This document shows positions 33,928 through 64,000 of a stretch of 64,000 bases of DNA, one piece after another. Numbering within the stretch: the stretch's first letter is position 1; the number at the start of each line of letters is the position of its first letter. Origin of the DNA: a virus; the IMG/VR virus record IMGVR_UViG_3300030333_003379, positions 33,524-97,523 of that record; one strand, 5' to 3'. The position numbers and the translations under genes are program-made. Under the pieces are notes generated by a model. The model made no database searches. It saw nothing but the letters and a program-made list of their open reading frames with translations, and was not told the origin of the DNA.

Positions 33928-35348
33928 ACATCAGCCCAACCTATTCGCTTTGTCCACGCCTCACCATCAAGCACTACAATGTTATCCCTGTATTCCTTGG
34001 TAGCCTGAACCGCCAAAGCCAGAGCGATAACTGTATCATCGTGCCGGCCAAGGGACTCCATTTTACCATTCGGAAGCATGGTGAACATAGACAACTCATT
34101 CAAAAGCGTATTCATGTGTCTATGGGTTGCCCCCTCATCTTTGTAAGGAATTATCAGATGCCGTTGTTCAAAATGTAACTGTAATGCGTGGATAACTGCC
34201 TCCTTACGCATACGACTCATAGTGAATGGTTTTATTGGCAGATCACTAATCTCTTTCAACACTTGATGGAATGCTTGAGCGAAATTGTTTGTTTCAAGTT
34301 CTACGATTACAGGATTGTATCTCGCATTGAGTTCGATTATCTTATCAATTTGTGATGAAAAGTCCATACCTTTCTCGTGGTGCATCCACACTATGCGCTT
34401 ATGGCGATTCTCATCCATAGCCAAAACAACCATGCAAGTATAGTCGGCTTTTCTATCTGGGCTAATCGCTGGATCCCAACCAATGTAGTAATTCACATCT
34501 TCTTCAATTGGTGGTTGGAACTCCAATTTGTATTCTTCATCTTTGCATGGGTCGGTCATTTCCACAGGGAATAGGCTTGAATCGCTTGCAATTGGTTTGC
34601 ATAGATATTCACGAGTAAATGCAATTGAAGTCATTTCACCCCTACGGGTTTGTAGTGCCTCTAATGACCACCTTTCAGGCCACAATGGTTTCCCGGTTTC
34701 CTCATTGATAGCAGGGTATTCATTAACCCAATATCCTTTCAACCCCTTCAATTCTTGATACAAATCAGTATATGAGAACGGTGTTCCAACGATGCACAAC
34801 TGTGCTGTGTGGTGAAGCACAGGTAACAAAGCAGTATAGAACCAAGTGGCAATATGAGTCATCTGTGATTCTGCTTCACTAGAAAGAATATCGTCAAGCA
34901 CTACAATATCAGGGTGCGCCCCACGCACCGCTTTTCCAACGGACATAGCAGCAATAGATGATTTGTTGGTGAACTTGAACTTCTGCTTCGCCCATCCTCT
35001 CTTGGGTTTTAGGTGTTGAAGTGCAGGTGTTGTTTCAATCAACTCATTCATTTTACCCATGTGTTCGATGGATTGATGCTGACTGTGTGAAAAGAATAGA
35101 ACTTCTGTGCCATCATTGTATGCCATTTTCCATAGTAAATACACACGATAAAACACAGATTTGCCGTGGTCACGAGAAGCAATTACGCAGGTCTTGTTAT
35201 GGTTCTCCGAAGCATCATACCATTCTTGGTGAAAGTCGGCTAATTGGAACTTGCAAATATCTTCAAAGAAGTATTTGAAATCCCTGCGACCCATCTCCCA
35301 ATCCACTTTGGATGCTAGATCAAGAACTGCTTCACTCACGATAACCAC
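33924..35348 (-). CDS. terL: Terminase large subunit (474 aa)
   Basis: Walker A ASRDHGKS, Walker B IVVLDDI, coupling motif IVGTP, RNase H nuclease IGWDPA...DYT...HDDTVIALALA. Confidence 0.95.
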   Translation of the reverse strand: MVIVSEAVLDLASKVDWEMGRRDFKYFFEDICKFQLADFHQEWYDASENHNKTCVIASRDHGKSVFYRVYLLWKMAYNDGTEVLFFSHSQHQSIEHMGKMNELIETTPALQHLKPKRGWAKQKFKFTNKSSIAAMSVGKAVRGAHPDIVVLDDILSSEAESQMTHIATWFYTALLPVLHHTAQLCIVGTPFSYTDLYQELKGLKGYWVNEYPAINEETGKPLWPERWSLEALQTRRGEMTSIAFTREYLCKPIASDSSLFPVEMTDPCKDEEYKLEFQPPIEEDVNYYIGWDPAISPDRKADYTCMVVLAMDENRHKRIVWMHHEKGMDFSSQIDKIIELNARYNPVIVELETNNFAQAFHQVLKEISDLPIKPFTMSRMRKEAVIHALQLHFEQRHLIIPYKDEGATHRHMNTLLNELSMFTMLPNGKMESLGRHDDTVIALALAVQATKEYRDNIVVLDGEAWTKRIGWADV

Positions 35349-35785
35349 CCACTTAGGTAATTACCACAGTTAGGGCAACTGATTTCGGTGTAATAGCCCG
35401 ATTGATCACGCCTACCGGGGCTTTCAGATATTTGGAAATTGCACATATGTGGCCCTTCACCTTCACCACCCATCATGTTAGCACACCACGGTTGCAGACC
35501 ATTAGCACATCTCCTACAACAAAATTGATCATCATACACATCATCCATAGTGGTGTCTGTCCTCTTTCCACAATTAGCGCATTCATGCACCACACCCCCT
35601 TCGGAATATGGCTTTGAATATGCTTCTTCCCGTTGTCGTTGTATTTCAGCAAAAAAGGGATTATTCCTTACTGCCGCACCAAAAGCAATAGTGGGATTTG
35701 GATCATTCAATCGGTGGAAATCATCATCGGGTTCAATATCATCCTCTATTTTGAGGATTTTCCAAGCCCGGTTGAATGCACTCAC
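35336..35785 (-). CDS. Tagged zinc-finger protein (149 aa; MSAFNRAWKILK)
   Basis: N-terminal tag; CANC, CCRRC and CPNC motifs. Confidence 0.65.
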   Translation of the reverse strand: MSAFNRAWKILKIEDDIEPDDDFHRLNDPNPTIAFGAAVRNNPFFAEIQRQREEAYSKPYSEGGVVHECANCGKRTDTTMDDVYDDQFCCRRCANGLQPWCANMMGGEGEGPHMCNFQISESPGRRDQSGYYTEISCPNCGNYLSGWLS

Positions 35786-37686
35786 TCAACCACACCCTCT
35801 TGCCATCCCTGCGGCAAGAGGCTGTAATCGGCATCTGCCTGTTGTTGGCCTTGCATCTGTTTCAGCATACCTTGAGGCAATAATGAGAGATTGGCTGATG
35901 CCAATTTTTCATCTTTGGGTTTATCTGACGGCCATGGCCTACCTTGTTGAACAGCATAATAGTGTTCCATACTCTCATAACCCAAAGGTGCATTTCTCGG
36001 CATACCCGCATGATGTGGTATTGGATCTGGACTTACTGAAAGTGCCTCACCGACCCCTCTAATGCTATTCATTTCTGTTTCAGATGGTAGCCTTCTTGCC
36101 TTATCTATGTTGAAATTATCATGGATAGCAAACGCATTCGGATTATCGAATGGATTTGCGAATGGGTCTTTCAGCACAGACCATGCAGAATTGAAAGCAT
36201 CATGGCTTTTCTTTTTGTCCTTTTTCGGTTTTTTCGGCATTGGTGGTGTCTTATCTTCTGCCTTCTTACCCTTTTTCGGCTTTTTTGGTGACTCGGCTTC
36301 ACTAGATCCGCCCTTTGCATCTATTGCATCTTGGATACGCTTTGGTAATCCGTCACTATGAAATCTCGCTACTGATGCGGGATTGCTTGCAAGCCAATCC
36401 AAAGATTGCTCACTACCTTGTGAGGCTGCTTGAATGTGTTTAGTGTATTCACCGTATGGAACTGCTTCACCTGATGGTGCAGGTGCTTCTGCTTTTGGTG
36501 GTGCATCAAACAATGTTTGCTGACTTTGTGGTATTGACTCACGCTTCGCCTTTCGCCCTTTCGCCCTTTGTGTCGCTGATTCAACATCTGTCGGTGCATT
36601 TGGTGCAGGTGCTTCTGCCTCTGGTGCTGGCGCAGATGGTGGTTTGTTGTATTCATTCAATCGCTCTTGATTCATTACCGTTTCATTTCCACCTTCACCC
36701 ACTATGGGGCTTGGGGGTAATGGTGCTTGTTCCTTTGATTTTTCTCTACCTTCAATACCCGCCTCAATCATCTCATCTTCTGCGGAAGGGATTGGCTCAA
36801 GTAGCCCTTGGTCATCATTTTCTAACGAAGCATAGTATGCTGCCATAGCCTTTCCTTTAGCAGATCTCGCCCCCCATGGTTTTCGTGTTCGATAATTCCA
36901 ATCTTCATCACGGCTACCCGGCCCACTTTCAGCCAAAGTCGGCTTCCATGGCAATCCGACACGAGATTCTTCTGCGGGTGGTTCTTCTGCGGGTGGTGTG
37001 GGGTGGGGGTGGTGTGGTGGCATATCCTCCACATTACCCCATTCATCTGCGGTATTGGTCGCATCTCTGCGTTGTGAAACACTCCAACCTTGTTCAAATG
37101 CTGACGGTGGTGATTGTGCGCCAACATCTTGACTTGGTGCAGGTAATTGTCTATTTTCAGGTGCTGTATTAGCACCGCCCCATGGCCCTTGTGCGCCAAC
37201 ATTCTCAAAGAAGCCGGGCTTGTTAATATGTTGCCAATCCTTACCTTCTACTAAATCAATAGGTTCGTTTTCTGAAAGGTGAGGAACTTCTGTTGATGAA
37301 CCACTAAAGGTGTTTTCTGGTAACATCCTTGAATTATCTGTAATTGGTTGTTGAGCCGATTGTTCTGATAACATTCTCGACTCATCTGTAATTGGTGATG
37401 CAGGTGCTTTTGGTTTTCGTGGGCCTCGTGTCCTCTTTGGTTTAGGGCCACGCATTTGTTCATAAATACTCATTTGGTCATCAGTTAAATGACCAGATCT
37501 ACCCGGCATTCTCCTTTTAGCGTTGTAACCACGCTTTGCACCGCCCCAAAATCCCTTTTGTAATCCATCCCAGACATATTCAAATACTGCATCTGTGGAT
37601 GGTTCAGCACGAAGCGTGTGCTTTCCAAGCATCTCTGCTCGTGCTTTGATAAGAAGGTCATCGAATCGGTCAGTCATTTCACTCAC
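35782..37686 (-). CDS. Large disordered P/E/A-rich protein (634 aa) with an internal tag (AFNSAWSVLK)
   Basis: Low complexity; LLIK|A and LQK|G near the N-terminus; tag at 36169-36198. Confidence 0.65.
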   Translation of the reverse strand: MSEMTDRFDDLLIKARAEMLGKHTLRAEPSTDAVFEYVWDGLQKGFWGGAKRGYNAKRRMPGRSGHLTDDQMSIYEQMRGPKPKRTRGPRKPKAPASPITDESRMLSEQSAQQPITDNSRMLPENTFSGSSTEVPHLSENEPIDLVEGKDWQHINKPGFFENVGAQGPWGGANTAPENRQLPAPSQDVGAQSPPSAFEQGWSVSQRRDATNTADEWGNVEDMPPHHPHPTPPAEEPPAEESRVGLPWKPTLAESGPGSRDEDWNYRTRKPWGARSAKGKAMAAYYASLENDDQGLLEPIPSAEDEMIEAGIEGREKSKEQAPLPPSPIVGEGGNETVMNQERLNEYNKPPSAPAPEAEAPAPNAPTDVESATQRAKGRKAKRESIPQSQQTLFDAPPKAEAPAPSGEAVPYGEYTKHIQAASQGSEQSLDWLASNPASVARFHSDGLPKRIQDAIDAKGGSSEAESPKKPKKGKKAEDKTPPMPKKPKKDKKKSHDAFNSAWSVLKDPFANPFDNPNAFAIHDNFNIDKARRLPSETEMNSIRGVGEALSVSPDPIPHHAGMPRNAPLGYESMEHYYAVQQGRPWPSDKPKDEKLASANLSLLPQGMLKQMQGQQQADADYSLLPQGWQEGVVE

Positions 37687-39208
37687 CTAGATTCTTTCTT
37701 GATTCCGCATTCTTGGCTTTAATCCGTTCTAGCATATCGCCCTCATTTTCTTCGGTGCGTTTTGTTGCTTCTTCGGATTGACCGGTAGAAGGTGTGGTGG
37801 AAACCCTTTTCATTTCAGGAGAAGGAACATCAACCTCACCCCTTGCTATTGCCAATATGTGTTGTTTTTCGTGTTCACTCATGCTTTGTAGCATTTGTAT
37901 GATTTCTTCTTCTGATGCACCTTCACGCCAAGCCATTTCTCTTAATTCATCATCTCCTTCTCTTAGATGTGCATCGTAGTCATAAGGTGGGTCTAACTCA
38001 TCTCCCAATGGTTTTGACCAATCCACTTCTTCATTTTTTGAAATTGATTGTCTTATGCTGATATGTGAAATAGCCTTGTGAATACGATCATGTGAATGAA
38101 GCATATCCTCCATGCCTTCTCTTGACCTTTGGAAATTACCTTGAGCCATCTGGTTCAATTGGTTTCTACCTCTCCTTCGCTGATTCCATGCCCATAGGTT
38201 GCTTAGACCACCTGTGGCAAGACCACCGAGAATACCTCCACCGCTTTGATTAGCCATTGCTTGTGCGTTGGCTACTTGCGACATTTGTGCTGCTTCTTGT
38301 GCAGCACCCATTTGGTTGTTGCCTTGGTTGTTGCCTTGGTTGTTGCCTCGGTTGCCACCTTGACCACCACCGCCCCAACCACCCATGTTGAATGAGAATT
38401 GTGGATTATTTTGCATCATATTTTGATTGCCACCGCCAGCCATGTTCTGTCCGGGTGCGCCACCTGCTGGTGCTTGACCACCACCTGCTGGTGCTTGACC
38501 ACCACCTGCTGGTGCGGGTGCGGGTGCGCCACCTGCTGGTGCTGGTGCGGGTGCGCCACCTGCTGCTGGTGCATCTGGTTGTCCATCACCATCGGCATCT
38601 CCACCTGCGGGTGCTTGTGCAGGTGCTGCGTTTGCAGGGGGATCTGGTTGCCCATCTCCGTCTGCATCTGGTGGTGCGCCACCTGCGTCTGCGCCTCCAC
38701 CTGCGGGTGCAGGGGCATCTGGTTGTCCATCACCATCTGCGTCTGCGCCTCCACCTGCTGGTGGTTGCTGATTATTTGGATTAACATCTGCCTGTCCAGC
38801 ACCGGGTGTTGGTGCGCCCGGAGTTAGCGACATTTTGCCCTCCATTCTCCTAGCATCTCTTACAGCGTTTTGATTCATGTGCATTGTTCCGCCTTCGCCA
38901 TACATCTGTGCAACCCAATCACCTTTTGCGCCACCCCTTGAGCCAGCACCTGCGCTTGGGTTGTTTGCTTGCCCCCCTGCTGCTTCTCTAAATGCCTTTT
39001 GACCTTCGGGTGATAATTTCTTGTATTGCCCTGCTTGCTTATTGCGAGACATTAAATCTCGACCTGCTGCGGTGAAGATATTTCCTCTACCTCCACCTGC
39101 TGCACCTTTACCCCATTTCTCAAGATCGAACTCGCCTTTTGCGATTGCTTCTCTTTCCATCAGAAGCCTTTGACGGGCTATCAAATCTGCACTAAATTGG
39201 GGTTTCAT
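37679..39208 (-). CDS. G/A/P/Q/N-rich protein (509 aa) with DADGDGQPD repeats and a glycine-zipper-like segment
   Basis: Three DADGDGQPD units, PAGGGQA repeats, NQGN repeats and GGILGGLATGGLSNLWAW. Confidence 0.7.
   Translation of the reverse strand: MKPQFSADLIARQRLLMEREAIAKGEFDLEKWGKGAAGGGRGNIFTAAGRDLMSRNKQAGQYKKLSPEGQKAFREAAGGQANNPSAGAGSRGGAKGDWVAQMYGEGGTMHMNQNAVRDARRMEGKMSLTPGAPTPGAGQADVNPNNQQPPAGGGADADGDGQPDAPAPAGGGADAGGAPPDADGDGQPDPPANAAPAQAPAGGDADGDGQPDAPAAGGAPAPAPAGGAPAPAPAGGGQAPAGGGQAPAGGAPGQNMAGGGNQNMMQNNPQFSFNMGGWGGGGQGGNRGNNQGNNQGNNQMGAAQEAAQMSQVANAQAMANQSGGGILGGLATGGLSNLWAWNQRRRGRNQLNQMAQGNFQRSREGMEDMLHSHDRIHKAISHISIRQSISKNEEVDWSKPLGDELDPPYDYDAHLREGDDELREMAWREGASEEEIIQMLQSMSEHEKQHILAIARGEVDVPSPEMKRVSTTPSTGQSEEATKRTEENEGDMLERIKAKNAESRKNLGE
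38459..38765 (-). repeat. Coding tandem repeats (PAGGGQA / DADGDGQPD units)
   Basis: Repeated ccacctgctggtgc units and three gcatctggttgtccatc-like units, all in frame in the 509-aa gene. Confidence 0.8.
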
Positions 39209-41058
39209 CTAAAGGCCACCTTTACTAATTGTATTACTTCTAACGGAACATCCATTGATTTCGACATTTCTCGCCAATCCCCTTTACTATTTAGGATTGT
39301 TACTACATCAGAGGATGGTCTTTGGATTTGACCTGCCATAAATGCAATATCGGAACTTTTTGTTGAATCCATTTGAATGTGAGGCATCATTTTGATAATT
39401 GTCTCTTCTTGGAGAGCCATATCTATCTGAACCGTTTCAAGGGCATTTTGTATTTCTTCACGAGTGAAAAGATTGGCGACAGACGCTGCCCCGCTACCCA
39501 ATGCTTCACCAATTCTATCCATAATACCTCTCCTTTCAGATTGCAAGGCTTCGCCCGATTGTTGAGGCGGAGGCATTTGCACTTGATTAGCATTTAGGTC
39601 TTGTGGTGCTTCTCGTTGCGGAATTGGCGGTGGTTGCTCTCGTTGCGGGACAGGTGGTGCTGGTTGTCTTTGAGGAACAGGATTAGCAGGTGGTTGTGGC
39701 TGTGGTGCAGGTCGTGGTGCAACAGGTGGTGCTTCTTCTATTGGTTGAATTGGTTGTTGTGGTGGTGGTTGCTCTTGAGGCAACGGTGCTTGTGGTGGTG
39801 CGTCACCTGTAAGAATGCCATGACCACCCCTCATTACCCGTTCAAGGAATGAACCACCGGGATTTGCATCCACGAGTTCTTGGATGCTTGGCACAGTCAT
39901 CCCCTGTTCCTCTGCTTTTGCTCTGATATTGTTGTATAATGCCAACGCTTGTGCTTTGTTAGACCAACCGCCCCCATATTTCATGCGATTATCTCTACTA
40001 TAAGAGCCGAGAAGGTTTTTGCCGTGTTTGGATTGTGCTAGTTCGGGATTATCCAAGAAGTAATTGATGTGAGCAAGTGGATCTTCTTGCATTGGAACAC
40101 CTGCTTGAGCCTCAACCATTGCTTCTGCTGGATCTTGCTCAACCGCATTAGGTGGTGCTTCTCTATTACGAACACCAAACATATGGCGATTTACAATATC
40201 TAATTGCCGGCCGTCTGCCTGTGGCAAAGGTGCTGAACCGAAGTGAGGCATTTTATTCCTTAGAGTTGAGTGTTGAACCCACGCTTGTTTGAACTTTTCA
40301 GGTGTGTTAAGTGGAGTGCCGTTTGCTGCTGCTGCATCCATCATATCAAGAATAGCCTTATGACCTTCATTATCAATATAGACAGAATTAGGATGTAGTC
40401 GGTGGCTCTCGATATATTCTCTTGTATTACCACCGCCCCTTATCTCTTTGAGTCCTTCTGCATATGGCCTTGCCCAAGATTCTGGGCTACGATTATACTG
40501 ATCACGATTGATGGTTCGGAGTTGAACCGTTCCATCTTGCATTACTTCAAACGGATTTTTTTTGTCCATTTTTGCTGCTACACCATTTCTCCACATAGGA
40601 GTCAATTGGCCGTTTGCATCAAAAGCAGGGTCAATTTTCATAGGCATGGCCTGTGGCTTTCCTCTCGCTAATGCTTCGTTGTATTTTTCCATCATTTTGT
40701 TATTGGTAATTTCAATGGCTTGATTGATAGTAGCAGCACCACATTGGATTGCGTGATTTTTTGCTGCGATAAACGCTTCTTCTCCCCATGGCCCATGTGG
40801 GCCAGAGTAAATTATGTCTGCTTCTTCTTTTGAAAGTCCAGAGGCTTCACCTTGATAGATAGCCTCCCACATAGCATCGGCTTCAACACCCGTCATGTGC
40901 GCCCCACCAATATCCTCTGTGGCTCGTGGCATAGCACCAAATGAACCATCTGGTTGTGCGTAACCAATGAGGCTGTTGATTAGTTCATCCCAATCATAAT
41001 GACCCAGACCTTTCTGAATCACGAATTGGTCAAGAACCGCCCAACCAGCAATACTCAT
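39205..41058 (-). CDS. Hypothetical 617-aa protein with P/Q-rich linker (MSIAGWAVLDQFVIQK|G)
   Basis: Long ORF with overlaps at both ends; N-terminus resembles a partial tag. Confidence 0.65.
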   Translation of the reverse strand: MSIAGWAVLDQFVIQKGLGHYDWDELINSLIGYAQPDGSFGAMPRATEDIGGAHMTGVEADAMWEAIYQGEASGLSKEEADIIYSGPHGPWGEEAFIAAKNHAIQCGAATINQAIEITNNKMMEKYNEALARGKPQAMPMKIDPAFDANGQLTPMWRNGVAAKMDKKNPFEVMQDGTVQLRTINRDQYNRSPESWARPYAEGLKEIRGGGNTREYIESHRLHPNSVYIDNEGHKAILDMMDAAAANGTPLNTPEKFKQAWVQHSTLRNKMPHFGSAPLPQADGRQLDIVNRHMFGVRNREAPPNAVEQDPAEAMVEAQAGVPMQEDPLAHINYFLDNPELAQSKHGKNLLGSYSRDNRMKYGGGWSNKAQALALYNNIRAKAEEQGMTVPSIQELVDANPGGSFLERVMRGGHGILTGDAPPQAPLPQEQPPPQQPIQPIEEAPPVAPRPAPQPQPPANPVPQRQPAPPVPQREQPPPIPQREAPQDLNANQVQMPPPQQSGEALQSERRGIMDRIGEALGSGAASVANLFTREEIQNALETVQIDMALQEETIIKMMPHIQMDSTKSSDIAFMAGQIQRPSSDVVTILNSKGDWREMSKSMDVPLEVIQLVKVAFR

Positions 41059-42896
41059 CTCTTAGACACCCCATGCACTACATCACGAATCGTGGGATCT
41101 TCAAAGCGATATGGTGCTTGTAGTTCATCATCTAATTCTGTTCCACCTTGTGGGTCGCTACATCCACCTGCCTTGTTACCCCTCTTGGCTTTATCATCAA
41201 GTTCGGGATTACTCTTGGTTAATTTCTCCACGGCTTGTAACAAACGCTTGAGATCCTTCTTCATATCTAACAATTGACTTCGATTGAATCCCTGCAAATC
41301 TTTTCCAGATACCTGCAAGGTTGCTCTTTTGCTAATATCCATCTTCACAGTTAGAGGGTCGCCTCCTAATGGCTCACCTGCTAATGCTGCCTCTCTTGCG
41401 GCAGCCTTGTTTGGTTTGAATTGTGAAAGTGATGTTCCCTTCGGTGCGCCAGCACCAAAATGGGGGTTATGTGGTAATTTTGTGCCTTTACCACCGATAC
41501 CGATGGTTTGCACTTTATCGCCAGAAAGACCACGAGTATCAGCGTGAGCAGAATGCCCTCTCGGTAGCGCACCCATCTGTCTGCGGAACTTCTCGGCAGC
41601 CAATTTACGCTGATATGCTACGGGATCACGGATTCTCAATGGAATACCAGATGCCCTTGGATTTGCACCCAACATCCTTCTTGGGGAGAATGCTTGTTCT
41701 CTTGGATTGCGTGAAATGTTCTGTTCGATATTTTTCTCACGCCTCTTGGTTTTACCCTTGATATCACGGCTGGCTTCCTTCTTACCACGCTTCATCTCAC
41801 GCTTACGCTTGCGCTTGCGCTTGATCTTGCTTTTCTTTTCCTCCGCCTCACCTTCTTCATCTTCCTCATACTTACGCCCACGCTTCTTGCGTTTGCCTTT
41901 TACGATATCAGACAAGAATAAAGTTGGTGGCATTTGAGATTTGTTTGCATCTTGCCATAATTTTGATTCTTCTGGACTGTAACCGAACTCACCCACGCTA
42001 TCATGGAGGATATTTTCATATTGACTTGGATCATCACTATACCTTTCATCATCCATCGGGAATGCTGCCCCTCTTGCTGCTATATCGTGTGCAGGGGTAT
42101 GCACAAGTGGTGTTAGATCTTCAACACCATATGGTGCATCACTCATGGGGTCATTTTCCACTTTCTCTTCAAGCATTTGGTGAAACCATTCCTGTGGTGG
42201 CATAGCACCGTCATTTGCTGCTTGATATGCTCGGATATCTTGAGCGTCTATGATTTCATGTAAAGGAACACCAACTGCTGCCTTTTCCCCTGTTTCCCTA
42301 TGTATTCCAAGACCTGCTAAACCACCTACAAATCCTTGAGCAAGCCAACCCGGTTCTTCTTGATTCATTTCATCAATATCTTGGGCAGCCTGTTCAATTG
42401 CTCTCCGCCTAACTTCGTCAAATGGATCATTCTTCAACATTGACCACGCATCTTCAAATGCTTCTTTACTTCGACTAAAAATCAATCCCGGCCCTTCTCT
42501 ACGAACCGGGCCAACCCCTGCGCCTTGTGATATACCAATGCCGTCAGAAGCATGACCCATATCCACACCCATGGCGGATTCAAGTAATTCGCTTTCATTC
42601 TCCATCATTGGAGTATTGTTGATTGTTTCAGCCATTTCCTCTGGCTTTATGCTGATATGAGGCAATTCACCCTCCATTTCACGCATTGCTCTCTTTTTTC
42701 GTTGCTTCGGATCTAACTGCTCTCGCATTTCCTCACTAGCGGTTGATTGGCGGTTGTAATGAGATAATCCATCAGAATCCTCATTAGGATTCACATCATA
42801 ATCCCCTAGCATCTCTCGTGGTCGAAAACCACCTGTATGCTCTTGGATGCGAACTGCTTCTTCGTTCACACCCCTTCGGGGATTTGCCATAGGCAC
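41055..42896 (-). CDS. Hypothetical 613-aa protein with an internal tag (AFEDAWSMLK) and a highly basic K/R tract
   Basis: Tag at 42432-42461; KKRGRK...KIKRKRKRKREMKRGKK suggests DNA binding or condensation. Confidence 0.65.
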   Translation of the reverse strand: MPMANPRRGVNEEAVRIQEHTGGFRPREMLGDYDVNPNEDSDGLSHYNRQSTASEEMREQLDPKQRKKRAMREMEGELPHISIKPEEMAETINNTPMMENESELLESAMGVDMGHASDGIGISQGAGVGPVRREGPGLIFSRSKEAFEDAWSMLKNDPFDEVRRRAIEQAAQDIDEMNQEEPGWLAQGFVGGLAGLGIHRETGEKAAVGVPLHEIIDAQDIRAYQAANDGAMPPQEWFHQMLEEKVENDPMSDAPYGVEDLTPLVHTPAHDIAARGAAFPMDDERYSDDPSQYENILHDSVGEFGYSPEESKLWQDANKSQMPPTLFLSDIVKGKRKKRGRKYEEDEEGEAEEKKSKIKRKRKRKREMKRGKKEASRDIKGKTKRREKNIEQNISRNPREQAFSPRRMLGANPRASGIPLRIRDPVAYQRKLAAEKFRRQMGALPRGHSAHADTRGLSGDKVQTIGIGGKGTKLPHNPHFGAGAPKGTSLSQFKPNKAAAREAALAGEPLGGDPLTVKMDISKRATLQVSGKDLQGFNRSQLLDMKKDLKRLLQAVEKLTKSNPELDDKAKRGNKAGGCSDPQGGTELDDELQAPYRFEDPTIRDVVHGVSKR

Positions 42897-55560: not shown

Positions 55561-57107
55561 TAAGCAACCCTCCTTGGTTGAACATTGCGGAATATGTTTT
55601 CCATGATATTTGGATTTAGGGTATTACCTAGTTGAGTATCAATGATATTCTGTCGCTTCTTCTTAGGTGGATTGACTTGGAATCCTTGATTATCCCTTTG
55701 AGGGAAATTGAATGCTTTTGCTTCTTCTGGTGTCCAGCCCTGTATTTGCATGACTTCGGGGCGAGTTAATTTACGAACATGGGTTAAAGCAGGTCTGTGA
55801 TGGGTTACAGATTCAGATGGGCCACTAAGTGGATTGATATGTTTCCATGCAAAACCTCGCTTTTCATCATTCCACGGTGATCCGCCTCTCCCCGGATTGA
55901 TTGAACCTCCCATACTCAATGTTGGAACGGATAGTAAATCCATTGCATTAGGGGCATTGCCTTGTTGAAGTAAGTAATCAATTTGCGCTTGGCGATCACC
56001 TTCTTCCCACTCTTGTTGCATATACGGGAAGTGGTCGTTTATGCTACGATAATTTCCTCTACCCATGATTTGTGGTGTAGCCTTAGAGCCGTGAACCGCA
56101 TACATTCGTTGTCTTACGGTTGGAGAACCAAACATACCCGATTCAAGAAGTGGACTTTCTCTCGCCATGGTTTTGAACTCTTGTGAGATGTTTTTATCAC
56201 GGAGTAAAGGTTTGAGGATTTCAGGTGATTGTTCCACCGACATAACCACAGGGGCATTCTCCCATCCCATTACTTCACTCATAATATCGTCAGCAAAGCG
56301 CATACCTTCCATTGCACCACTCACATCAACATCTTTCGATTGATTAGAGCGAGCGATTTTCTTGCATGATGGTGATTGATGTAATGCCCAACTATCCAAT
56401 CCTGTGGTGGCATCGTGAATATGACCTAATGTATCGTCAAGTGTTTCTGGACTAAACCATTGTTGTATATGCTTACCCGGTAGATTCTCATTGAGTGTGC
56501 GAATTGACTCATCCCAACCATCCATAGCCAACACAGGATTCGCCCCAACTCGCATAGCAGCCGTTTCGGGCGCACCCATACCAGAAAATAGAGTTACCAA
56601 TCCTTCAAAGGGGGCATCATCGGGCTTATCTTCATACATTGAATACTTCAAAATAGCATCCCAACCCGCTTCAAATGCGTCACTAGAGGCTAAATGCCCC
56701 ATTGACCTTGACGAACAGGCATCCCATGTATCCAATACCATTTGGGCTACTTTCTTCTCTTGATCACTACCTTGTCGTAACCATAATTCCATTTTCTCTT
56801 GTAATTCAGCACAAGACCACCCCTCATCACCATTGGCTACCGCTTCTGCTAAATCAAACAACATTTGAGTGAAGAAGGGGTCTGAAAGGGGATTTGAGCC
56901 TTCTTGCTTGGCATACTCAAACATCCATGACGATAATTCCTCTCGTGCCTCTGCACAACAGGGATCTTCAATTTCATCAGTAAGGGTATCCAAATCTTCT
57001 ATGGTTCGCTCTGGCTCATACATCACAAAAGGTTGAGATGGCTCTGGATTTACATTGATTCTTGGTGAGCCGTCAGGTCGTTTAAGACCAAAGTTATCAC
57101 TCACCAT
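55560..57107 (-). CDS. C5 cytosine DNA methyltransferase-like protein with N-terminal extension and an internal tag (515 aa)
   Basis: LFSGMG (I), SPSCK (IV variant), RQRMY (VIII), RKLTRPEVMQIQGW (IX), QLGN (X); AFEAGWDAILK at 56646-56678. Confidence 0.75.
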   Translation of the reverse strand: MVSDNFGLKRPDGSPRINVNPEPSQPFVMYEPERTIEDLDTLTDEIEDPCCAEAREELSSWMFEYAKQEGSNPLSDPFFTQMLFDLAEAVANGDEGWSCAELQEKMELWLRQGSDQEKKVAQMVLDTWDACSSRSMGHLASSDAFEAGWDAILKYSMYEDKPDDAPFEGLVTLFSGMGAPETAAMRVGANPVLAMDGWDESIRTLNENLPGKHIQQWFSPETLDDTLGHIHDATTGLDSWALHQSPSCKKIARSNQSKDVDVSGAMEGMRFADDIMSEVMGWENAPVVMSVEQSPEILKPLLRDKNISQEFKTMARESPLLESGMFGSPTVRQRMYAVHGSKATPQIMGRGNYRSINDHFPYMQQEWEEGDRQAQIDYLLQQGNAPNAMDLLSVPTLSMGGSINPGRGGSPWNDEKRGFAWKHINPLSGPSESVTHHRPALTHVRKLTRPEVMQIQGWTPEEAKAFNFPQRDNQGFQVNPPKKKRQNIIDTQLGNTLNPNIMENIFRNVQPRRVA

Positions 57108-57111
57108 GTTT

Positions 57112-57237: not shown

Positions 57238-58782
57238 ATGCAGGGGCAACCAATCTTCATCATGCAGCAAGGCACGACACAAGAACAAGGCAAAACGGCA
57301 CAGTCGAATAATATCGCTGCCGCTAAAGCAGTAGCACAAGCAGTTCGGACTACACTAGGGCCAATGGGCATGGATAAGATGCTAGTGGATGAAAGTGGAG
57401 ATGTAATCATCACAAATGATGGTGCAACCATTCTTCAAGAGATTAACATTGAACACCCAACGGCTAAGATGATTATTGAAATCGCTAAAACACAGGAACA
57501 GGAATGCTATGATGGCACAACATCTGCTGTGATTGTCGCAGGTGAACTACTCAAGCGTTGTGAGGAACTTATTGATCAGAATGTTCATCCCACAGTCATT
57601 TGCCGTGGATTGCGAAAGGGAATGTCTTTCCTTCTATCAGATTTGAAAAATTATGAAATCAATGATATTGATTTGGATAAGATTGCCAAAACCGCCCTTA
57701 CAGGCAAGTCGGCTGACTCATTCAAGGACATTATCTCTGCGATTTGTGTTGAAGCGGTGGAAAACACCGACAGCCTTGAAGATATCCGTATTACCAAGGC
57801 ACTTGGTGGTTCAGCAGGGGATAGTGAGATAATCAACGGTATTATTCTCGATAAAGAGCGTTGCCACCCCGCAATGCCTTCTCATCTTCAACCATCCACC
57901 GATGGTTGGGCTATTGCCCTAATTGATAGTAATCTTGGAGTAAAGCAGACCGAAATGGAGGCAAACATCCAGATTACAGATCCCGCACAGATTGAAGCGT
58001 TCTTAGCAAAAGAAGAAGCCGAATTGCAAAAGATGGCAGAAGATTTCCATGACCATGGTGTGCAAGTGGTTCTGTGCCAGCGTGAAATTGATGATTTAGT
58101 CAAGTATCACTTTGCTAAATTGGGCATCATTGCCGTTGAGAAGGTAACAAAGAGCGATATGGAAGCCGTAGCAATGGCTTCTGGTGCCACAATTATCAAC
58201 AACATCAATGATATGAGTAACGATGCCAAAGGATTCTTTGAAGAAGTTAAACAGGAAATGATTGGTGAAATGCCTATGCTATTCCTTTACCATGGTCAAA
58301 CACCTGCCATGACTGTATTACTTCGTGGCCCTACTACACACTTCGTTGAGGAAATTGAAAGAGCCTTTGATGATGCAGCAGGTGTGGTCAAGGTCGCCAA
58401 AGATGACGGAGTTATCCTTGCAGGTGGAGGATCTACTTACGCAGGTCTATCCAATTCACTAGCAAATCATGCTAATCACCATGGTGGCAGAGAAGGAATG
58501 TCTATGCTGGCACTATCAGTAGCACTTGAGTCCATTCCACGCACTCTAGCAGAGAATGCAGGTCTAGACCCGGTTGATGAGATGATGATGCTTAACCAGA
58601 CACATTCAGCAGGTAACAAGTATATGGGTATCAACATCGAAGTCGGTGGCACTATTGATATGAGAGATCTAGGTGTCTATGAGCCAAAGCGTGTGGTTGA
58701 GCAAGCACTCAAGTCAGCAGTTGAAACTGCAATCATGGTGCTTCGTATTGACGACATAATTTCATCACGAAAGACCGACTAA
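57238..58782 (+). CDS. ths: Group II chaperonin (thermosome subunit, 514 aa)
   Basis: [26 protein letters not shown], helical protrusion region, [17 protein letters not shown]. Confidence 0.95.
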
Positions 58783-58901
58783 GGTTGGAATATCTTAGTG
58801 TAAAGCCAAGCGAATGGCAACAGTATAAGAAGAATTGGTATTGCAACCATTGCAGCCAATCCCATTAGGACTAATTGCCAAAGGGGTTTATCCTCACTCA
58901 T
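58779..58901 (-). CDS. 40-aa single-TM peptide (not in the ORF track)
   Basis: [40 protein letters not shown]; ATGA overlap with the upstream gene; stop overlaps the thermosome stop. Confidence 0.6.
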   Translation of the reverse strand: MSEDKPLWQLVLMGLAAMVAIPILLILLPFAWLYTKIFQP

Positions 58902-60685
58902 CTAAGACCACCCGTATCGGGTGGTGTTTCATCATCATCTTCGTCATAATTGATACCTGTCCATGGTAGTTCGCCTAATGAAGATACATAATCCAGAAGT
59001 TCTTTACCAGACATTGATTCCATATCTGGGCGTTCTCCTGTTTTCCATTCGACCAAATCTTCTGTATCTTCCCACGGTCTTAATTGCATATACTGATTAT
59101 TGCGAATGGCAGAATCACCAGAAGTGTAATCATCCATGAATCTTCTCTTGCCCCCACAACCCGGACATTCACCTGCCCTGCGGTGCATATCATATTTTTG
59201 TGCGCCACTATGGATAATTTCTTGTCGTGAAGGATCCCAATTCACTTCACTATACCCTGCTCTACCCGTAGCGGGGCTATAATCCACAATGTTGCGCTTT
59301 CCTGTTCCAACAAATGACGGATTCCACATACTTACAGTATCATAATATCTGGGATTGTTTTCTGGGTCGTCAATATGCTCTTGCGCTCTTGGGCTATGTG
59401 ATTCATGATCTCTCTTTTCTCTCGGTGTGTATAATGCCCTACAACTCGGACAGAAGGTGGCTCGTTGGGTATCTCTCATTGCCCCTATACCTGCTTTAAT
59501 GGCACTTCGCTGTTGTTCATCACGATCAAAGAAGAGTGGGCTATGCCTATCTGCTTCATCACCCATAACCATCCTAAATGCTGATGGGCCACCTTCCATT
59601 GGACTATACTGATGGTGGCGATATCCACCAAACGGCAATATACCATATCCTTCATCATCCCATATCTGCCCTGCATCATCTAGCACATCATCCCAGAATG
59701 AACGCCCACCCCTTTCTGCGATACCGTGTTTTTGTTGATATTCCAAATAGGGACATTCATTGGGATTGTGATGCCCATATGTGCTAGTAGCACCTTCTGG
59801 TAATGGGGCGCAATAAGGGCAGATTTGGGTTCTTTGGTTGTAATCACCCATCCAATCTTGTCGGTCTGGGTCTTTTCTCCCAAACCCTGCTTCATTTTTC
59901 TCATACTGCTTTGGGTCAGGACTTGGGGCTAGATCATTACTAAACCATCTCCCATTTTCTTCCCATGAATCATCTGCAATCAATTTACCATATCTTTCCA
60001 ACATTTCTTCTGTGGTTAAACGGGGATAAAATCGCTCAAAGGGTCGGATTTCATCACCAAACTCATCCATTTTTCCACTTCTCCTGTGGCGACCCGTATC
60101 GGGGTCATATACTCTTGATAGCATACCCGGATAGGGGTCAGGTCTTTGGTGAAGATTACCATGTTCATCAGTCCACTCGTATGGATAATTCTCTAATGGA
60201 TAGGGAACATCCTCACCATGCCTAAGATATGGTGGTGATACCCAATCCTTACCTGCGGGGGTTTGAAGTGGCTCATGCAACATACCACCAGCATTTGGGC
60301 AGAATGGTCTCGTTCTGCCCAATCTTACACTATATTGTTCATCAGGGGGATTGTCGGGAAACAATTCCATTTCTGTATCAGGGTCATAAACATCTTTCAT
60401 TGCTATTGCCCTATCCAATTGCTCTCTTGATAGATGATTAGCCGGGGTGTAGTTCTCAAGATCTCCATCCAGAATCTTATCCCTTACGATGTTATCATAT
60501 CCTCTGCTTGCAAATCTATCAAGAATATCCCTTATGATGGGGTTTCCAATGCGACTACCTCTCTCATAGTTAAACCGGGGAACAGATTGGGTTTCCCACC
60601 CATGCACATTTTCTGGAAATAATTCAAACACAGATGAGTCATAATCCTTCTGGATTATATTCCATGCTTGATTAAACGCACTCAT
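58898..60685 (-). CDS. Tagged hypothetical protein with several CxxC motifs (595 aa; MSAFNQAWNIIQK)
   Basis: N-terminal tag; CPYC, CPSC and CPGC. Confidence 0.65.
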   Translation of the reverse strand: MSAFNQAWNIIQKDYDSSVFELFPENVHGWETQSVPRFNYERGSRIGNPIIRDILDRFASRGYDNIVRDKILDGDLENYTPANHLSREQLDRAIAMKDVYDPDTEMELFPDNPPDEQYSVRLGRTRPFCPNAGGMLHEPLQTPAGKDWVSPPYLRHGEDVPYPLENYPYEWTDEHGNLHQRPDPYPGMLSRVYDPDTGRHRRSGKMDEFGDEIRPFERFYPRLTTEEMLERYGKLIADDSWEENGRWFSNDLAPSPDPKQYEKNEAGFGRKDPDRQDWMGDYNQRTQICPYCAPLPEGATSTYGHHNPNECPYLEYQQKHGIAERGGRSFWDDVLDDAGQIWDDEGYGILPFGGYRHHQYSPMEGGPSAFRMVMGDEADRHSPLFFDRDEQQRSAIKAGIGAMRDTQRATFCPSCRALYTPREKRDHESHSPRAQEHIDDPENNPRYYDTVSMWNPSFVGTGKRNIVDYSPATGRAGYSEVNWDPSRQEIIHSGAQKYDMHRRAGECPGCGGKRRFMDDYTSGDSAIRNNQYMQLRPWEDTEDLVEWKTGERPDMESMSGKELLDYVSSLGELPWTGINYDEDDDETPPDTGGLR

Positions 60686-60945: not shown

Positions 60946-60948
60946 TTC

Positions 60949-61500
60949 TCATCCGCCCCTGTAAAGCCCCCGTTGAAACATTATATCAAGTAAATGCCTA
61001 TTATCTTGTTTATCTTCTGGTAATGCAGCCCTATTACGAGATCCAGCAAAGTCAATGACTTCCAAATACTTGGGGTCTATTCTATCACGAGTTCGTTGGT
61101 GATCATGCGCCCATTCCCAATTTCTGACCCATCTACCTTCATTATCGGGTTTAATGGCTATCATAACGGGGTCATCAATCATATCAGCATACATTTCCAT
61201 ATCATCAAACACATCCCCATCAGCATCTATTGCCCAAGTCCAATTTCCTTCATACAAATCATCAGTATCACGATAACCTGCATTTCGTGCTATTTCATCC
61301 AATTCTTCAATGGTGAAATCGTGCATACTATGGTCTATGATAGGTTGGGATGCGGGATGGACACCCTTGCCACTACCCATTAAGGCTGGATTTAGCCCTT
61401 CACGCATAATACCGGGAACATTATCTCGGTGTGTAAAGTGGTATGCGAAGGGATAGGGTCTGCCCTTGACCACAAGCCATGCAGTATCAAAGGCGGTCAA
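60949..61500 (-). CDS. Tagged ADP-ribosyltransferase-fold protein (TTG start; [M]TAFDTAWLVVK; 183 aa)
   Basis: AYHFTHRDNVPGIMREGLNP...RIDPKYLEVI; TTGA overlap with the upstream stop. Confidence 0.7.
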   Translation of the reverse strand: MTAFDTAWLVVKGRPYPFAYHFTHRDNVPGIMREGLNPALMGSGKGVHPASQPIIDHSMHDFTIEELDEIARNAGYRDTDDLYEGNWTWAIDADGDVFDDMEMYADMIDDPVMIAIKPDNEGRWVRNWEWAHDHQRTRDRIDPKYLEVIDFAGSRNRAALPEDKQDNRHLLDIMFQRGLYRGG

Positions 61501-62096
61501 TCTTCCACCACCGTTGAAATCAATTTGCGAGGGGCGTGTATTGGGTCTAAATCGGCTTCTTTGAAGGCTTCGTTGTTCACCTTCTCCCAACCACCATAAG
61601 TCAAAGGTTCGTCAATCGGTATGTCGGGCGCATATACAACTTCAAGGTATTCTGGAGGGATGGTTTCGTTTGAATGCAACCCATAGGTATTTCGCCTCAT
61701 TGGGAATTGGTCGGACACACGGATTATCGCAGGGCGGTTGATTTCATCGGTGATAAACGGCTCTCGCATAAAATGAATATCGGCAATCCCATGCCCCGTT
61801 TTTTCTTTGGATTCTTGCCTTAACTTCCTTTTCAATTGCTGATTCCCTGCCCTTCGTGCATAATCATGGGCGGTTTCGGCAAATTGGGTCATATACACTC
61901 TCGGTAAATCACCATAATAGTCGGTATCAGGATCACGGATGAAGCGATTGCTCATTTCTTGCGCCCATTCATCGTCTTTGCGTCTATGAGTATGCGTTGG
62001 CTTCAAACCATGTTCCATAATGTCGGCAACACGGTCTTGCGTAGTGCCGTGATAAGGCATTTTGAGCAAGTCCCAAGCGGTATCGAAGGCGGTCAA
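61497..62096 (-). CDS. Tagged ADP-ribosyltransferase-fold protein (TTG start; [M]TAFDTAWDLLK; 199 aa)
   Basis: PYHGTT...IMEHGLKP...RVYMT...PAIIRV...TIPPEYLEVV; TTGA overlap. Confidence 0.75.
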   Translation of the reverse strand: MTAFDTAWDLLKMPYHGTTQDRVADIMEHGLKPTHTHRRKDDEWAQEMSNRFIRDPDTDYYGDLPRVYMTQFAETAHDYARRAGNQQLKRKLRQESKEKTGHGIADIHFMREPFITDEINRPAIIRVSDQFPMRRNTYGLHSNETIPPEYLEVVYAPDIPIDEPLTYGGWEKVNNEAFKEADLDPIHAPRKLISTVVED

Positions 62097-62920
62097 TATC
62101 CTTCCCTCCATACGGGTTTTCCATCAATAGTAAGATAATTTGGATTGGCGGAATGTGGCTCAATCGCTTCAAGGAAGTTCTGCATACCCGGTCTTTCGTG
62201 GTCTATATGGCTCATAAACTCCAACAATCTGCTTGCTGGTATTTCTATTCCCCACCTATCCAAATCCGTTTGTAATTTTTCACCGGGATCGTCTGCCGTT
62301 GCCGGCCAATAATCCGTAGGCTCGCTCAAACCCATATCAATATCAAACATTCTCCAATTGCCCGTTTGATCTACTCCCCAATTGCTATTTTGCCTATCAG
62401 CGACTATATGATTCAAAGGAATATCAGCAACGCCCTTTGTAGGGCGGTTGCTATTTTGCTCACGATACGAAGCCGCACCAACATCATCTCTCGCAAGCCA
62501 AGGTTGAAGGAAATATCTATCATCCACATTATATTCCGAAACAACAGGGAAACCCAAATCTTCTAACTCTTGAATTAGATTTTTACCATGATATTCATCA
62601 CCAAAGCGATTATCAACATCAAAAATATCTTGCCACGGATCACCTTTATCTTCACCTGTTATGCTAGAATACACAGAACGGGGGAGTTTCACCACAAAAT
62701 TATGATTATCTGGATGGGGGAGAACATATTTCATCGTTTGACCCGATGGGTAATCCTCATAACCCACATAATCTGGTTCTGTTTGCCCTGTATCTTCAAG
62801 CCATTGTTGGGATATTCGGGTTAAATCATTATCACTAAGCCTTGGTAAAGCCCTTGCCTGATACCTCCAACCCGGATTATACTCCTTGAGTAAAGCGAAA
62901 GCGGTATCGAATGCGGTCAT
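62093..62920 (-). CDS. Tagged kinase-like protein, HipA/PI3K-like catalytic motifs (275 aa; MTAFDTAFALLK)
   Basis: FVVKLP (Lys), ADRQNSNWG (DxxxxN loop, 62381-62398), MFDIDMG (Mg-binding). Confidence 0.65.
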   Translation of the reverse strand: MTAFDTAFALLKEYNPGWRYQARALPRLSDNDLTRISQQWLEDTGQTEPDYVGYEDYPSGQTMKYVLPHPDNHNFVVKLPRSVYSSITGEDKGDPWQDIFDVDNRFGDEYHGKNLIQELEDLGFPVVSEYNVDDRYFLQPWLARDDVGAASYREQNSNRPTKGVADIPLNHIVADRQNSNWGVDQTGNWRMFDIDMGLSEPTDYWPATADDPGEKLQTDLDRWGIEIPASRLLEFMSHIDHERPGMQNFLEAIEPHSANPNYLTIDGKPVWREGY

Positions 62921-63390
62921 TCGTCATCACCCCTTTGCCAGAGTGAATATCCATCTCTACCCTCATTTGGGTCAGCATTTCTTGCTAACAACCATTCTTC
63001 TATATCGTTTTGAATCCAAGCCTGATAATCATCTTCATCTTCTCCGGGTGAGATTTCCCTCCCTTGATACACAATTTCCATCATTTCGGGGGGTATTCTT
63101 TCACCATAAACCACCGACTCTGCCCCTTCTTCATCCATTATTGTGGGCATTTCATCAGAGATGTGAATAATTGCTGGCCCACCCCTATCGCTTCTTACTT
63201 GAGCGAACTCACCTGCATAGGTAGGCCCCCTTGAGGCAAAAGATACACGATCAGGATAATCGGGGTTATTCCTAAACCACGGATGGGTGTGAGGGCGTAA
63301 CCCCCCTCTCATAATCTGTTTTGCATTCCAAGCACCTGTGCCGTGAAAAGGCATTTTCAGCAACTCCCATGCGGTGTCGAAAGCATTCAT
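62917..63390 (-). CDS. Tagged ADP-ribosyltransferase-fold protein (157 aa; MNAFDTAWELLK)
   Basis: PFHGTG...IMRGGLRP...VSFAS...PAIIHI...RIPPEMMEIV. Confidence 0.75.
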   Translation of the reverse strand: MNAFDTAWELLKMPFHGTGAWNAKQIMRGGLRPHTHPWFRNNPDYPDRVSFASRGPTYAGEFAQVRSDRGGPAIIHISDEMPTIMDEEGAESVVYGERIPPEMMEIVYQGREISPGEDEDDYQAWIQNDIEEWLLARNADPNEGRDGYSLWQRGDDE

Positions 63391-63665
63391 TCGCCATCAC
63401 CCCACATTTCTAACCATTCCCACGGATCTATGTGTTGCCACATTTCTCGGTGGCGTTTTCCAAGTAGTTCAGCCAAACCATCAGGCCAATGCGAATCTTT
63501 ACCTGTCTGCATTCCTCCCGTTGGGTCATCATCAAAATGATAAGCATAAGGAGAGGCGATTAACCAACTCAAGTAGCCATCGGCATCATCCCTGTTCTCA
63601 ATGGGGTAGCGAGCAGGGGCTAATGGGTCTTTCACCACTAACCATGCGGTGTCGAAAGCGGTCAT
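63387..63665 (-). CDS. Tagged small hypothetical protein (92 aa; MTAFDTAWLVVK)
   Basis: Start revised to the ATG at 63665 (ATGA overlap). Confidence 0.7.
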   Translation of the reverse strand: MTAFDTAWLVVKDPLAPARYPIENRDDADGYLSWLIASPYAYHFDDDPTGGMQTGKDSHWPDGLAELLGKRHREMWQHIDPWEWLEMWGDGE

Positions 63666-64000
63666 TGATTCCAACCCCTTTCTGCAAGCCTTGCGTTCAA
63701 TGTTGCACCGTCTGGTAACTGTTCCCATTGATAATCAGGATTTCTATTCGCCAAATTACCCAACGATTGACCCATTAAATCTGGCTCTATCATCATAAGA
63801 CCTGTTTTCTCATCGAGAACAGGCTTTTGACTCATGTTAGCATGACGGGGTATATCGGGGTGGTCGCCCTTAATCCACCATGTATCTCCCATACCGAACT
63901 TATCCTCTGTATCAATACCGCCAAAGCCATACCAACCACCTTTACGCTTGTATGCCGGCTTTCCATCTACCATACTTCTAGAACTGCCTGTTGATTGATA
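63662..64000 (-). CDS. 3' part of a gene starting beyond the right window edge
   Basis: Frame open from 64000 to the TGA at 63662. Confidence 0.65.
   Translation of the reverse strand, partial: YQSTGSSRSMVDGKPAYKRKGGWYGFGGIDTEDKFGMGDTWWIKGDHPDIPRHANMSQKPVLDEKTGLMMIEPDLMGQSLGNLANRNPDYQWEQLPDGATLNARLAERGWNQ

Follow-up and report, generated by a model that had tools for sequence, protein, structure and literature searches.

A short portable peptide on mostly unrelated proteins of a marine archaeal tailed virus: a candidate capsid-targeting and processing signal

The stretch of DNA analysed here (64,000 nucleotides, referred to below as the window) covers positions 33,524 to 97,523 of the IMG/VR virus record IMGVR_UViG_3300030333_003379 and is part of a single 99,897-bp contig that carries the whole genome. 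Terminase, portal, protease and tail genes are all present in this genome, together with a series of minus-strand genes whose products carry a common peptide of 10-12 residues, the tag. The original prediction had listed 12 copies of the tag in the window, eight N-terminal and four internal, and a six-frame regular-expression (regex) scan found every one of them, all on the minus strand (Table 1). Three extra N-terminal copies lie just past the window end, at window-equivalent positions 64120, 64914 and 65663, giving 11 N-terminal copies in the whole genome, which begins with eight consecutive tagged genes. A strict regex matched the whole genome 14 times; when the residues of the six-frame translation were shuffled 200 times, matches averaged 0.02 and never exceeded 1. 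A hidden Markov model (HMM) of the tag, trained on tags from other contigs only, recovered 14 genome copies at 6.7-28.5 bits, while the best other match scored 4.5 bits. About 16 of roughly 94 open reading frames (ORFs) of at least 60 residues, or about one protein in six, are tagged. The original prediction had named a spread of the motif to non-structural proteins as a point that would speak against it; in this genome, tags were not seen on any replication, tail, portal or terminase protein by regex or HMM.

The eight tagged genes that open the array (60949-64000 and beyond, minus strand) are linked by 4-nt ATGA or TTGA overlaps with GGAGG-like sequences upstream, an arrangement that suggests translational coupling within one long transcript. 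Two of the N-terminal copies, read directly in the sequence, have TTG starts within TTGA stop-start overlaps, with GGAGG or GGTGG upstream.

The N-terminal consensus of the tag is M-[T/S/N]-A-F-[D/E]-x-A-[W/F]-x-[L/I/V]-[L/V/M/I]-K. The final lysine, which was not demanded in the search, occupies position 10 in 183 of the 199 N-terminal tags; in most of the others a lysine follows 1-3 residues downstream, and a plain Lys-to-Arg change was seen in none. The residue after the lysine is Met (56/190) or Ala (55/190) in 58% of cases, and the second residue after it is Pro in 84 of the 190, followed by a hydrophobic residue. In the AlphaFold2 (AF2) model of tagged protein T7, tag residues 3-11 are helical and run directly into the first catalytic strand (H-G-T), and the helical hydrophobic moment of the tags, 0.39-0.73, falls in the top 2-16% of shuffles. 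The amphipathic helix of the original prediction is therefore retained as a predicted helix of moderate amphipathicity only. The tag does not read as a Sec or Tat signal or as a lipobox, as Asp, Thr and Asp lie within ten residues and there is no hydrophobic core, twin arginine or cysteine.

Codon usage was examined within the tag, where all four Ala codons, both codons each of Phe, Asp and Lys, and all six Leu codons occur; at third codon positions, tags agree with one another at an identity of 0.54 inside a locus and 0.47 across loci. Because all synonymous codons occur at each tag position, these data argue for selection on the peptide and not on RNA or DNA, with the near-identical DNA at gene starts mostly its consequence. 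On this free synonymous variation, a conserved mRNA or DNA element was rejected; a conserved mRNA element was one of the alternatives that the original prediction had named.

To follow the tag beyond this genome, a degenerate DNA pattern for AFDTAW-x-h-h-K (h, hydrophobic) was used against IMG/VR, prokaryote genomes and metagenomes. In IMG/VR, 47 stretches match, with up to 7 exact pattern matches within one 13-kb locus, and many of these matches are on contigs of 60-108 kb that encode a capsid protein with 62-93% identity to that of this virus. A looser protein regex applied to the 47 IMG/VR loci and this genome yielded 213 distinct tagged ORFs, with the tag no more than 4 codons from the start codon in 190. 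When the tag was removed, 208 cargo parts fell into 84 BLAST clusters (E<1e-4), which rules out the reading of the tagged proteins as one family of paralogs. The metagenomes contributed at least 80 further loci with at least 214 distinct tags, at least 201 of these N-terminal. A comparison of related viruses with host genomes, as the original prediction had proposed, gave a clear separation: 596 Gb of bacterial and archaeal genomes held 14 single matches scattered over unrelated bacteria, 0 of them N-terminal, where our own estimate of the chance expectation is about 9. Because these matches are near chance level and none is N-terminal, the tag is not a host feature and, by the sequences searched, is restricted to one virus lineage. 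In each of three near-complete genomes, tagged genes share their strand with the terminase-portal-protease-capsid module and are upstream of it, except for one distant copy in genome G001, and one tagged gene adjoins the terminase gene. Tag numbers differ greatly from one genome of the lineage to another: a third genome, G002 (IMGVR_UViG_3300004457_000028, 103 kb, capsid protein 62% identical), which belongs to a more distant magrovirus, has just four, two of them of the AFSDAF type.

The tag is also found away from N-termini in relatives. The internal placement seen in the C5-methyltransferase-like protein (Table 1) recurs in loci L029, L045 and L047, 139-162 residues from the upstream stop. 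In L031 and L045, a stand-alone Dam-like methyltransferase has a C-terminal tag, AFEHGWAVLK, followed by 3-4 residues, and in L006, L037 and L047 a zinc-finger protein of about 250 residues combines a tag-like N-terminus (MPTAFRIAWDSA..GKILK) with a C-terminal AFTSAWDVVK and 2-4 residues. Given these C-terminal and both-end tags, removal of an N-terminal propeptide is not the whole function; a tag usable at either end may be a docking module, for which docking may matter more than removal.

The original prediction described the tagged proteins as unrelated after the final lysine. This is correct for most of them, which have nothing detectable in common, and incorrect for T5, T7 and T8, which fall in one BLAST cluster resembling ADP-ribosyltransferases (ARTs), and for T11, which belongs to a sister cluster and shows the H-x-T motif too; these four are ART-like paralogs. 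His16 and Thr18 are invariant in 19 members of the ART cluster, whose profile matches Tpt1/KptA at 4.3e-5 and DarT at 2.4e-3; the Tpt1 sequence match spans about 30 residues, and Pfam matches are below threshold. The 19 best PDB matches of the T7 AF2 model (predicted local distance difference test, pLDDT, 76.8) are all Tpt1/KptA chains, followed by ART toxins. On the motif, the profile matches and the model together, T5, T7, T8 and T11 are assigned to the Tpt1/KptA-DarT-like ADP-ribosyltransferase superfamily and are not placed in Tpt1 proper.

Other cargo is less readily classified. In the T6 family, Lys78, Glu120, Asp175, Asn180 and Asp193 are invariant in 9 members (a Lys/Glu/D-x4-N/Asp pattern); the cluster had no match in a PDB profile search, and the poor T6 model (pLDDT 60) found as its best weak matches RIO kinases and aminoglycoside/macrolide (APH-type) phosphotransferases, so that a kinase-like fold is only weakly indicated. 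Two proteins score just below the Pfam cut-offs for the C5 and D12 DNA methyltransferase families, the 515-residue C5-methyltransferase-like protein matching PF00145 at 21.6 bits with the cut-off at 22. Proteins resembling CxxC zinc ribbons are also among the tagged cargo, and four large low-complexity proteins (35782-42896), two of them with internal tags, are encoded directly upstream of the terminase gene. When ten tagged or neighbouring proteins were searched against Pfam, the thermosome and the near-threshold methyltransferases were the only matches. Of the cargo types originally proposed, the ART fold and the zinc-ribbon-like proteins are thus upheld, the methyltransferases stay near threshold and the kinase is a weak assignment. 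In relatives, the largest tagged cargo cluster (25 members, 21 of them aligned from L003-L047) has a YRRRGY-x-TA motif and was not found in this genome by BLAST; its PDB profile search gave weak but consistent matches to about 12 GNAT acetyltransferases (E 0.26-1). The same search was without a match for the 'APIDVYSDRGR' cluster.

The end of the tag resembles sites in the head proteins of the same virus. A motif h-h-K followed by Ala, Met or Ser was found at four places: residues 35-38 of the capsid protein (LLK/A, the slash marking the putative cut), residues 20-23 of the protease (ILK/A), the protease/scaffold junction (LLK/M) and a small head-module protein (ILAK/M). In capsid proteins down to 62% identity, [DE]-[LI]-L-K-[AS]-D-[AS]-P is invariant, and the G002 homolog of the small head protein begins MDLLK and continues MNP. 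In the consensus of 58 diverse S78 homologs, F-x-I-L-K closes the protease domain; His72 and Ser130 are invariant and Glu159 near-invariant. Proteases of the HK97 gp4 type have a precedent for lysine specificity, since HK97 gp4 cuts its own capsid protein after Lys103. The original prediction had noted a hydrophobic-x-K motif common to tags and to the capsid-protein and protease propeptides; the common motif is indeed conserved, and is better written as h-h-K followed by Ala or Met, often with Pro next. Its presence in the tag, the capsid protein and the protease makes it a candidate signature of protease sites and probably fits a T4-like system of targeting and processing.

By eye, the N-termini of the capsid protein and the protease have a longer pattern in common, W-x2-[ST]-G-[ST]-[DE]-(x)-[LI]-L-K-A-D, and the protease begins MSWSD...ILK. 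The capsid protein of the halovirus HVTV-1 reads ...MSK/ADN at the place matched by eye to Lys37. A covariation of the W-to-F tags of genomes L030, L031 and L046 with the 'NAW' of the capsid protein was considered and rejected, as the L030 and L031 capsid proteins keep W. In the group of capsid proteins at 62-66% identity this W is Y. Because W is kept in L030 and L031 and replaced by Y in that group, the capsid 'AW' is probably outside the signal.

Compared with the capsid proteins of HCTV-1, HVTV-1 and HCTV-5, haloviruses with genomes of about 100 kb, that of this virus shows 32.5-34% identity, and marine metagenomes contain more than 1,600 of its relatives. Homologs of the thermosome encoded in the window are present in both other near-complete tag-bearing genomes (43% and 36% identity). 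Magroviruses, the viruses of Marine Group II archaea, have been described by their genome size, a halovirus-like head module and a virus-encoded thermosome (PMC5434244). Because the size of about 100 kb, the halovirus-like head module and the thermosome match that description, the virus is classed, from its genome, as a magrovirus (Marine Group II/Poseidoniales virus type). The thermosome gene is surrounded by tagged genes but is encoded on the other strand. A gene between those of the small head proteins (29351-30670) and that of the protease encodes a 1157-residue protein without a Pfam family, which is kept in relatives, at 36% identity in G001 and as part of a 1809-residue protein in G002.

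Four neighbours of the tagged genes have tag-like or h-h-K N-termini (617, 634, 139 and 1023 residues; Table 1), and the tag HMM scored none of these four above noise.

Table 1. Tag copies, putative h-h-K sites and other features of the window, in window coordinates
Feature	Position	Strand	Evidence or remark
N-terminal tag MTAFDTAWLVVK of 92-residue protein T4 (63387-63665)	63630-63665	-	HMM 19.6 bits; ATGA overlap with upstream gene
N-terminal tag MNAFDTAWELLK of 157-residue ART-like protein T5 (62917-63390)	63355-63390	-	HMM 26.2 bits
N-terminal tag MTAFDTAFALLK, F for W, of 275-residue kinase-like protein T6 (62093-62920)	62885-62920	-	regex, HMM
N-terminal tag TAFDTAWDLLK (TTG start) of 199-residue ART-like protein T7 (61497-62096)	62061-62096	-	HMM 28.5 bits
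N-terminal tag TAFDTAWLVVK (TTG start) of 183-residue ART-like protein T8 (60949-61500)	61465-61500	-	regex, HMM
N-terminal tag MSAFNQAWNIIQK, one-residue insertion before Lys, of 595-residue protein T9 (58898-60685)	60647-60685	-	HMM 6.7 bits
Internal tag AFEAGWDAILK, residue 144 of 515-residue C5-methyltransferase-like protein (55560-57107)	56646-56678	-	regex
N-terminal tag MSRAFDAGWAVVK of 178-residue ART-like protein T11 (51960-52496)	52458-52496	-	regex, HMM
Internal tag AFRTGWSVVK, residue 100 of 142-residue protein, CxxC zinc-ribbon-like tail after it	43422-43451	-	HMM 9.7 bits
Internal tag AFEDAWSMLK, residue 146 of 613-residue low-complexity protein (41055-42896)	42432-42461	-	HMM 13.8 bits
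Internal tag AFNSAWSVLK, residue 497 of 634-residue protein (35782-37686)	36169-36198	-	HMM 14.7 bits
N-terminal tag SAFNRAWKILK (GTG start) of 149-residue CxxC-rich protein directly upstream of terminase gene	35750-35785	-	HMM 12.9 bits
Degenerate internal copy AFEQGWSVSQ, without Lys, residue 196 of 634-residue protein	37072-37101	-	HMM 3.7 bits, within noise
Degenerate copy SFDPSLWLGK, then AA, at junction with Cys-rich C-terminal half of 809-residue Dam-like protein (49565-51994)	50753-50782	-	
Protease N-terminal motif TWSATGSEFILK, then AD; putative cut after Lys22	25152-25187	-	h-L-K/A kept in relatives, proteases 58-64% identical
Protease/scaffold junction YTLLK, then MDDD; putative cut after Lys177	24687-24701	-	site persists in relatives
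Capsid-protein N-terminal motif NAWAYSGTDLLK, then ADSP; putative cut after Lys37	23764-23799	-	kept in relatives
Tag-like N-terminus MTDSFMDFGILAK, then MDP, of small head-module protein after portal gene	30623-30661	-	sequence
Prohead serine protease (S78, residues ~23-177) with scaffold-like C-terminal half	23892-25217	-	PF04586 5.5e-9; phrog head maturation protease
Major capsid protein, HK97-type	22726-23874	-	PF17236; phrog_24667 9e-57
Group II chaperonin (thermosome subunit)	57238-58782	+	PF00118 5e-148
Large terminase gene	33924-35348		
Portal gene	30708-32510		
1157-residue protein	25228-28701	-	
Neighbour, 617 residues, N-terminus MSIAGWAVLDQFVIQK	41011-41058	-	
Neighbour, 634 residues, N-terminus MSEMTDRFDDLLIK	37645-37686	-	
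Neighbour, 139 residues, h-h-K N-terminus ..IPSLMLK, then D	42896-43315	-	
Neighbour, 1023 residues, h-h-K N-terminus ..ALAKIMKADFILK, then P	52489-55560	-	

The tag exists, is modular, virus-specific and selected as a peptide, and its terminal motif is common to conserved sites in the capsid protein and the protease. The most economical reading of these observations, to which we give a probability of roughly 0.55, is a label like the capsid targeting sequence (CTS) of phage T4, which would dock cargo in the prohead and end in a cut site of the head protease. Under this reading, the tag would be the portable address label of one lineage of marine archaeal tailed viruses, the magroviruses: a short amphipathic helix, A-F-[DE]-x-A-[WF]-x-h-h-K, placed mostly behind Met-Thr/Ser and less often in an inter-domain linker or at a C-terminus. 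It would dock its carrier protein onto a component of the prohead and so lead to enclosure in the capsid. The last four tag residues and the next one (x-h-h-K then Ala or Met, often Pro) would form the recognition site of the S78 (HK97 gp4-type) protease that is fused to the scaffold. Cutting after the lysine would remove N-terminal tags and split multi-domain precursors, while C-terminal tags would stay in place, and the cargo, comprising Tpt1/KptA-like ADP-ribosyltransferases, DNA methyltransferases, a kinase-like protein, zinc-ribbon proteins and large disordered proteins, would enter the next host cell together with the DNA. The existence and breadth of the tag are well supported, and the mechanism, namely prohead binding, cleavage after the lysine, packaging and injection, is what we infer. 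The broader form of this proposal stands at about even odds, namely that a position-tolerant peptide loads a fast-changing arsenal of at least 84 families into an HK97-type capsid, where a Lys-specific protease trims and perhaps unlocks the enzymes. In this form, the arsenal would include ADP-ribosyltransferases acting on nucleic acid or protein, acetyltransferase-like and kinase-like proteins and DNA methyltransferases.

In phage T4, the internal proteins IPI-III and Alt carry the CTS, which the gp21 prohead protease cuts off (Mullaney and Black 1996, as cited in PMC9024508 and PMC10052503). As in T4, one short peptide of about ten residues heads a series of mostly unrelated proteins in a single virus, and it is predicted to end, like the T4 signal, in the motif at which the head protease cuts; the cargo includes an ADP-ribosyltransferase, and the same motif recurs in capsid and core proteins. 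The two signals are not homologous by the features compared: the magrovirus consensus AF[DE]xAWxhhK has no sequence similarity to the MKTYQEFIAE-type leaders of T4, the T4 motif is L/I-x-Glu and the magrovirus one h-h-Lys, and the magrovirus protease is an S78 HK97 gp4-type enzyme fused to scaffold and not a member of the gp21 family. The magrovirus system also differs in its archaeal host, in the number of tagged proteins (about 16 per genome, at least 84 clusters) and in the internal and C-terminal placement of some tags.

Other phages load proteins by related means. For P1 DarB, the first 30 residues suffice to load a reporter into the head (PMC9024508), and as in the magrovirus, where DNA methyltransferase-like proteins are tagged, an N-terminal signal there loads a large DNA-modifying anti-restriction enzyme. 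The DarB signal, unlike the tag, has been described for a single protein and depends on helper Dar proteins, and it has neither a many-family motif nor a described cleavage motif. The magrovirus cargo is likened to packaged effectors because its ART and methyltransferase types parallel T4 Alt and P1 DarB. [quoted passage not shown] The tag also differs from two further arrangements, MuF-fused polymorphic toxins and polyvalent phage proteins, in which effectors are either covalently joined to a head protein or strung together in giant polyproteins. Their modules are of similar kinds (ART, methyltransferase, kinase-like, zinc-binding) and presumably enter the cell with the DNA, whereas the magrovirus cargo is encoded mostly by separate small genes, each with its own tag.

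Several observations weigh against the T4-like reading. Packaging and cleavage are predictions from sequence, and both the virus and its host are uncultivated. C-terminal tags with just 2-4 residues after them and the protein tagged at both ends are unexplained by propeptide removal. In the ARTs, the tag adjoins the first catalytic strand without a linker, which may be awkward for a protease, and about 16 tagged proteins, some of more than 600 residues, are a heavy load for a 100-kb capsid. The capsid-protein residues up to Lys37 are conserved like the rest of the protein, which is untypical of a discarded propeptide. Finally, a scan of HVTV-1, a related halovirus, showed no comparable recurring N-terminus. 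The capsid targeting and clipping of the original prediction is accordingly kept in part: a modular, lineage-wide peptide with a protease-like terminal motif agrees with it, while a clipped N-terminal propeptide does not account for the whole function. Between its portal and protease genes, HVTV-1 (KC117377.1 38001-88000) encodes two giant proteins of 1049 and 1314 residues (the latter annotated as 'zeta toxin'), which may be a fused-polyprotein alternative to separately tagged cargo.

The various placements of the tag bear on a rival in which the tag is a cargo-loading peptide that is never cleaved and anchors proteins to the scaffold or to the inner face of the HK97-fold shell, the h-h-K likeness being coincidental or a common binding site. 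That tags stand at N-termini, in linkers and at the very C-terminus, and that one protein has them at either end, is typical of a docking peptide. In favour of this rival, too, the tag is a predicted, moderately amphipathic helix. Encapsulin cargo-loading peptides are likewise short and position-tolerant and address diverse enzymes to the interior of an HK97-fold shell, but encapsulins work without protease, DNA or injection, and their peptides are mostly C-terminal with other consensus sequences. This genome does not encode an encapsulin system of that class, having terminase, portal, protease and tail genes and a mostly N-terminal tag. An uncleaved peptide is made unlikely by the lysine, which is never replaced by Arg, and by the bias to Met or Ala and then Pro over 84 unrelated families, which exceed what a docking helix needs, as well as by the identical motif conserved at the protease's own domain boundaries.

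The virus-encoded thermosome raises the possibility of a chaperonin-client tag, a peptide that recruits the thermosome to fold its carriers. In T4, proteins are guided to GroEL by the N-terminus of gp23 (Snyder and Tarkowski 2005, as cited in PMC10052503), a thermosome homolog is present in all three near-complete tag-bearing genomes examined, and the capsid protein bears a tag-like AW...LLK element. Against this, a chaperonin was reported in just 12 of 26 magroviruses (PMC5434244), small zinc-ribbon and large disordered proteins are improbable obligate clients, and the invariant lysine and the Met/Ala-Pro that follows are left unexplained; we consider this explanation decidedly improbable. 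A similarly low standing is given to some other shared partner or place, be it a membrane, a virus-factory hub, or a degron or Lys-conjugation site that times toxic enzymes. The amphipathic helix would suit such roles, the invariant lysine is a possible modification site, and a tag adjoining the ART catalytic core could serve as a lock. A neutral to acidic tag, with Asp or Glu at position 3 and often at 7, would nevertheless bind membranes poorly, a secretion-type hydrophobic core is absent, and such a role leaves unexplained why the same motif occurs in the capsid protein and the head protease and why the tagged genes lie mostly upstream of the head module. That the peptide has no function, being a relic of common ancestry or a DNA homology patch for cassette recombination, is very improbable, for although five neighbouring genes begin with similar DNA and third positions agree slightly more within a locus than between loci, the use of all synonymous codons, the 84 unrelated cargo clusters, the internal and C-terminal copies and the strict amino-acid conservation over hundreds of copies all run counter to it.

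No paper containing 'AFDTAW' was found, and the magrovirus and archaeal tailed-virus papers checked mention no shared terminal peptide. If the T4-like reading is true, this would apparently, as far as we found, be the first capsid-targeting signal described for archaeal viruses, and the T4 strategy would have arisen independently with another protease family and another motif.

Magroviruses are among the most abundant archaeal viruses of the surface ocean, and the role of most of their genes is unassigned, both the viruses and their hosts being uncultivated. If the tag marks capsid cargo, a simple motif search would tell where the products of about 15% of the genes in each genome, and of hundreds of orphan families, are located and what they probably do, namely take over or disarm the host after delivery with the DNA. 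A short portable tag of this kind would also be a handle for loading foreign proteins into HK97-type or archaeal virus capsids. For the biology of the lineage, the tag would be a key, readable from sequence, to the injected effector repertoire of uncultivated archaeal viruses, with ADP-ribosylation and DNA methylation as early weapons against Poseidoniales.

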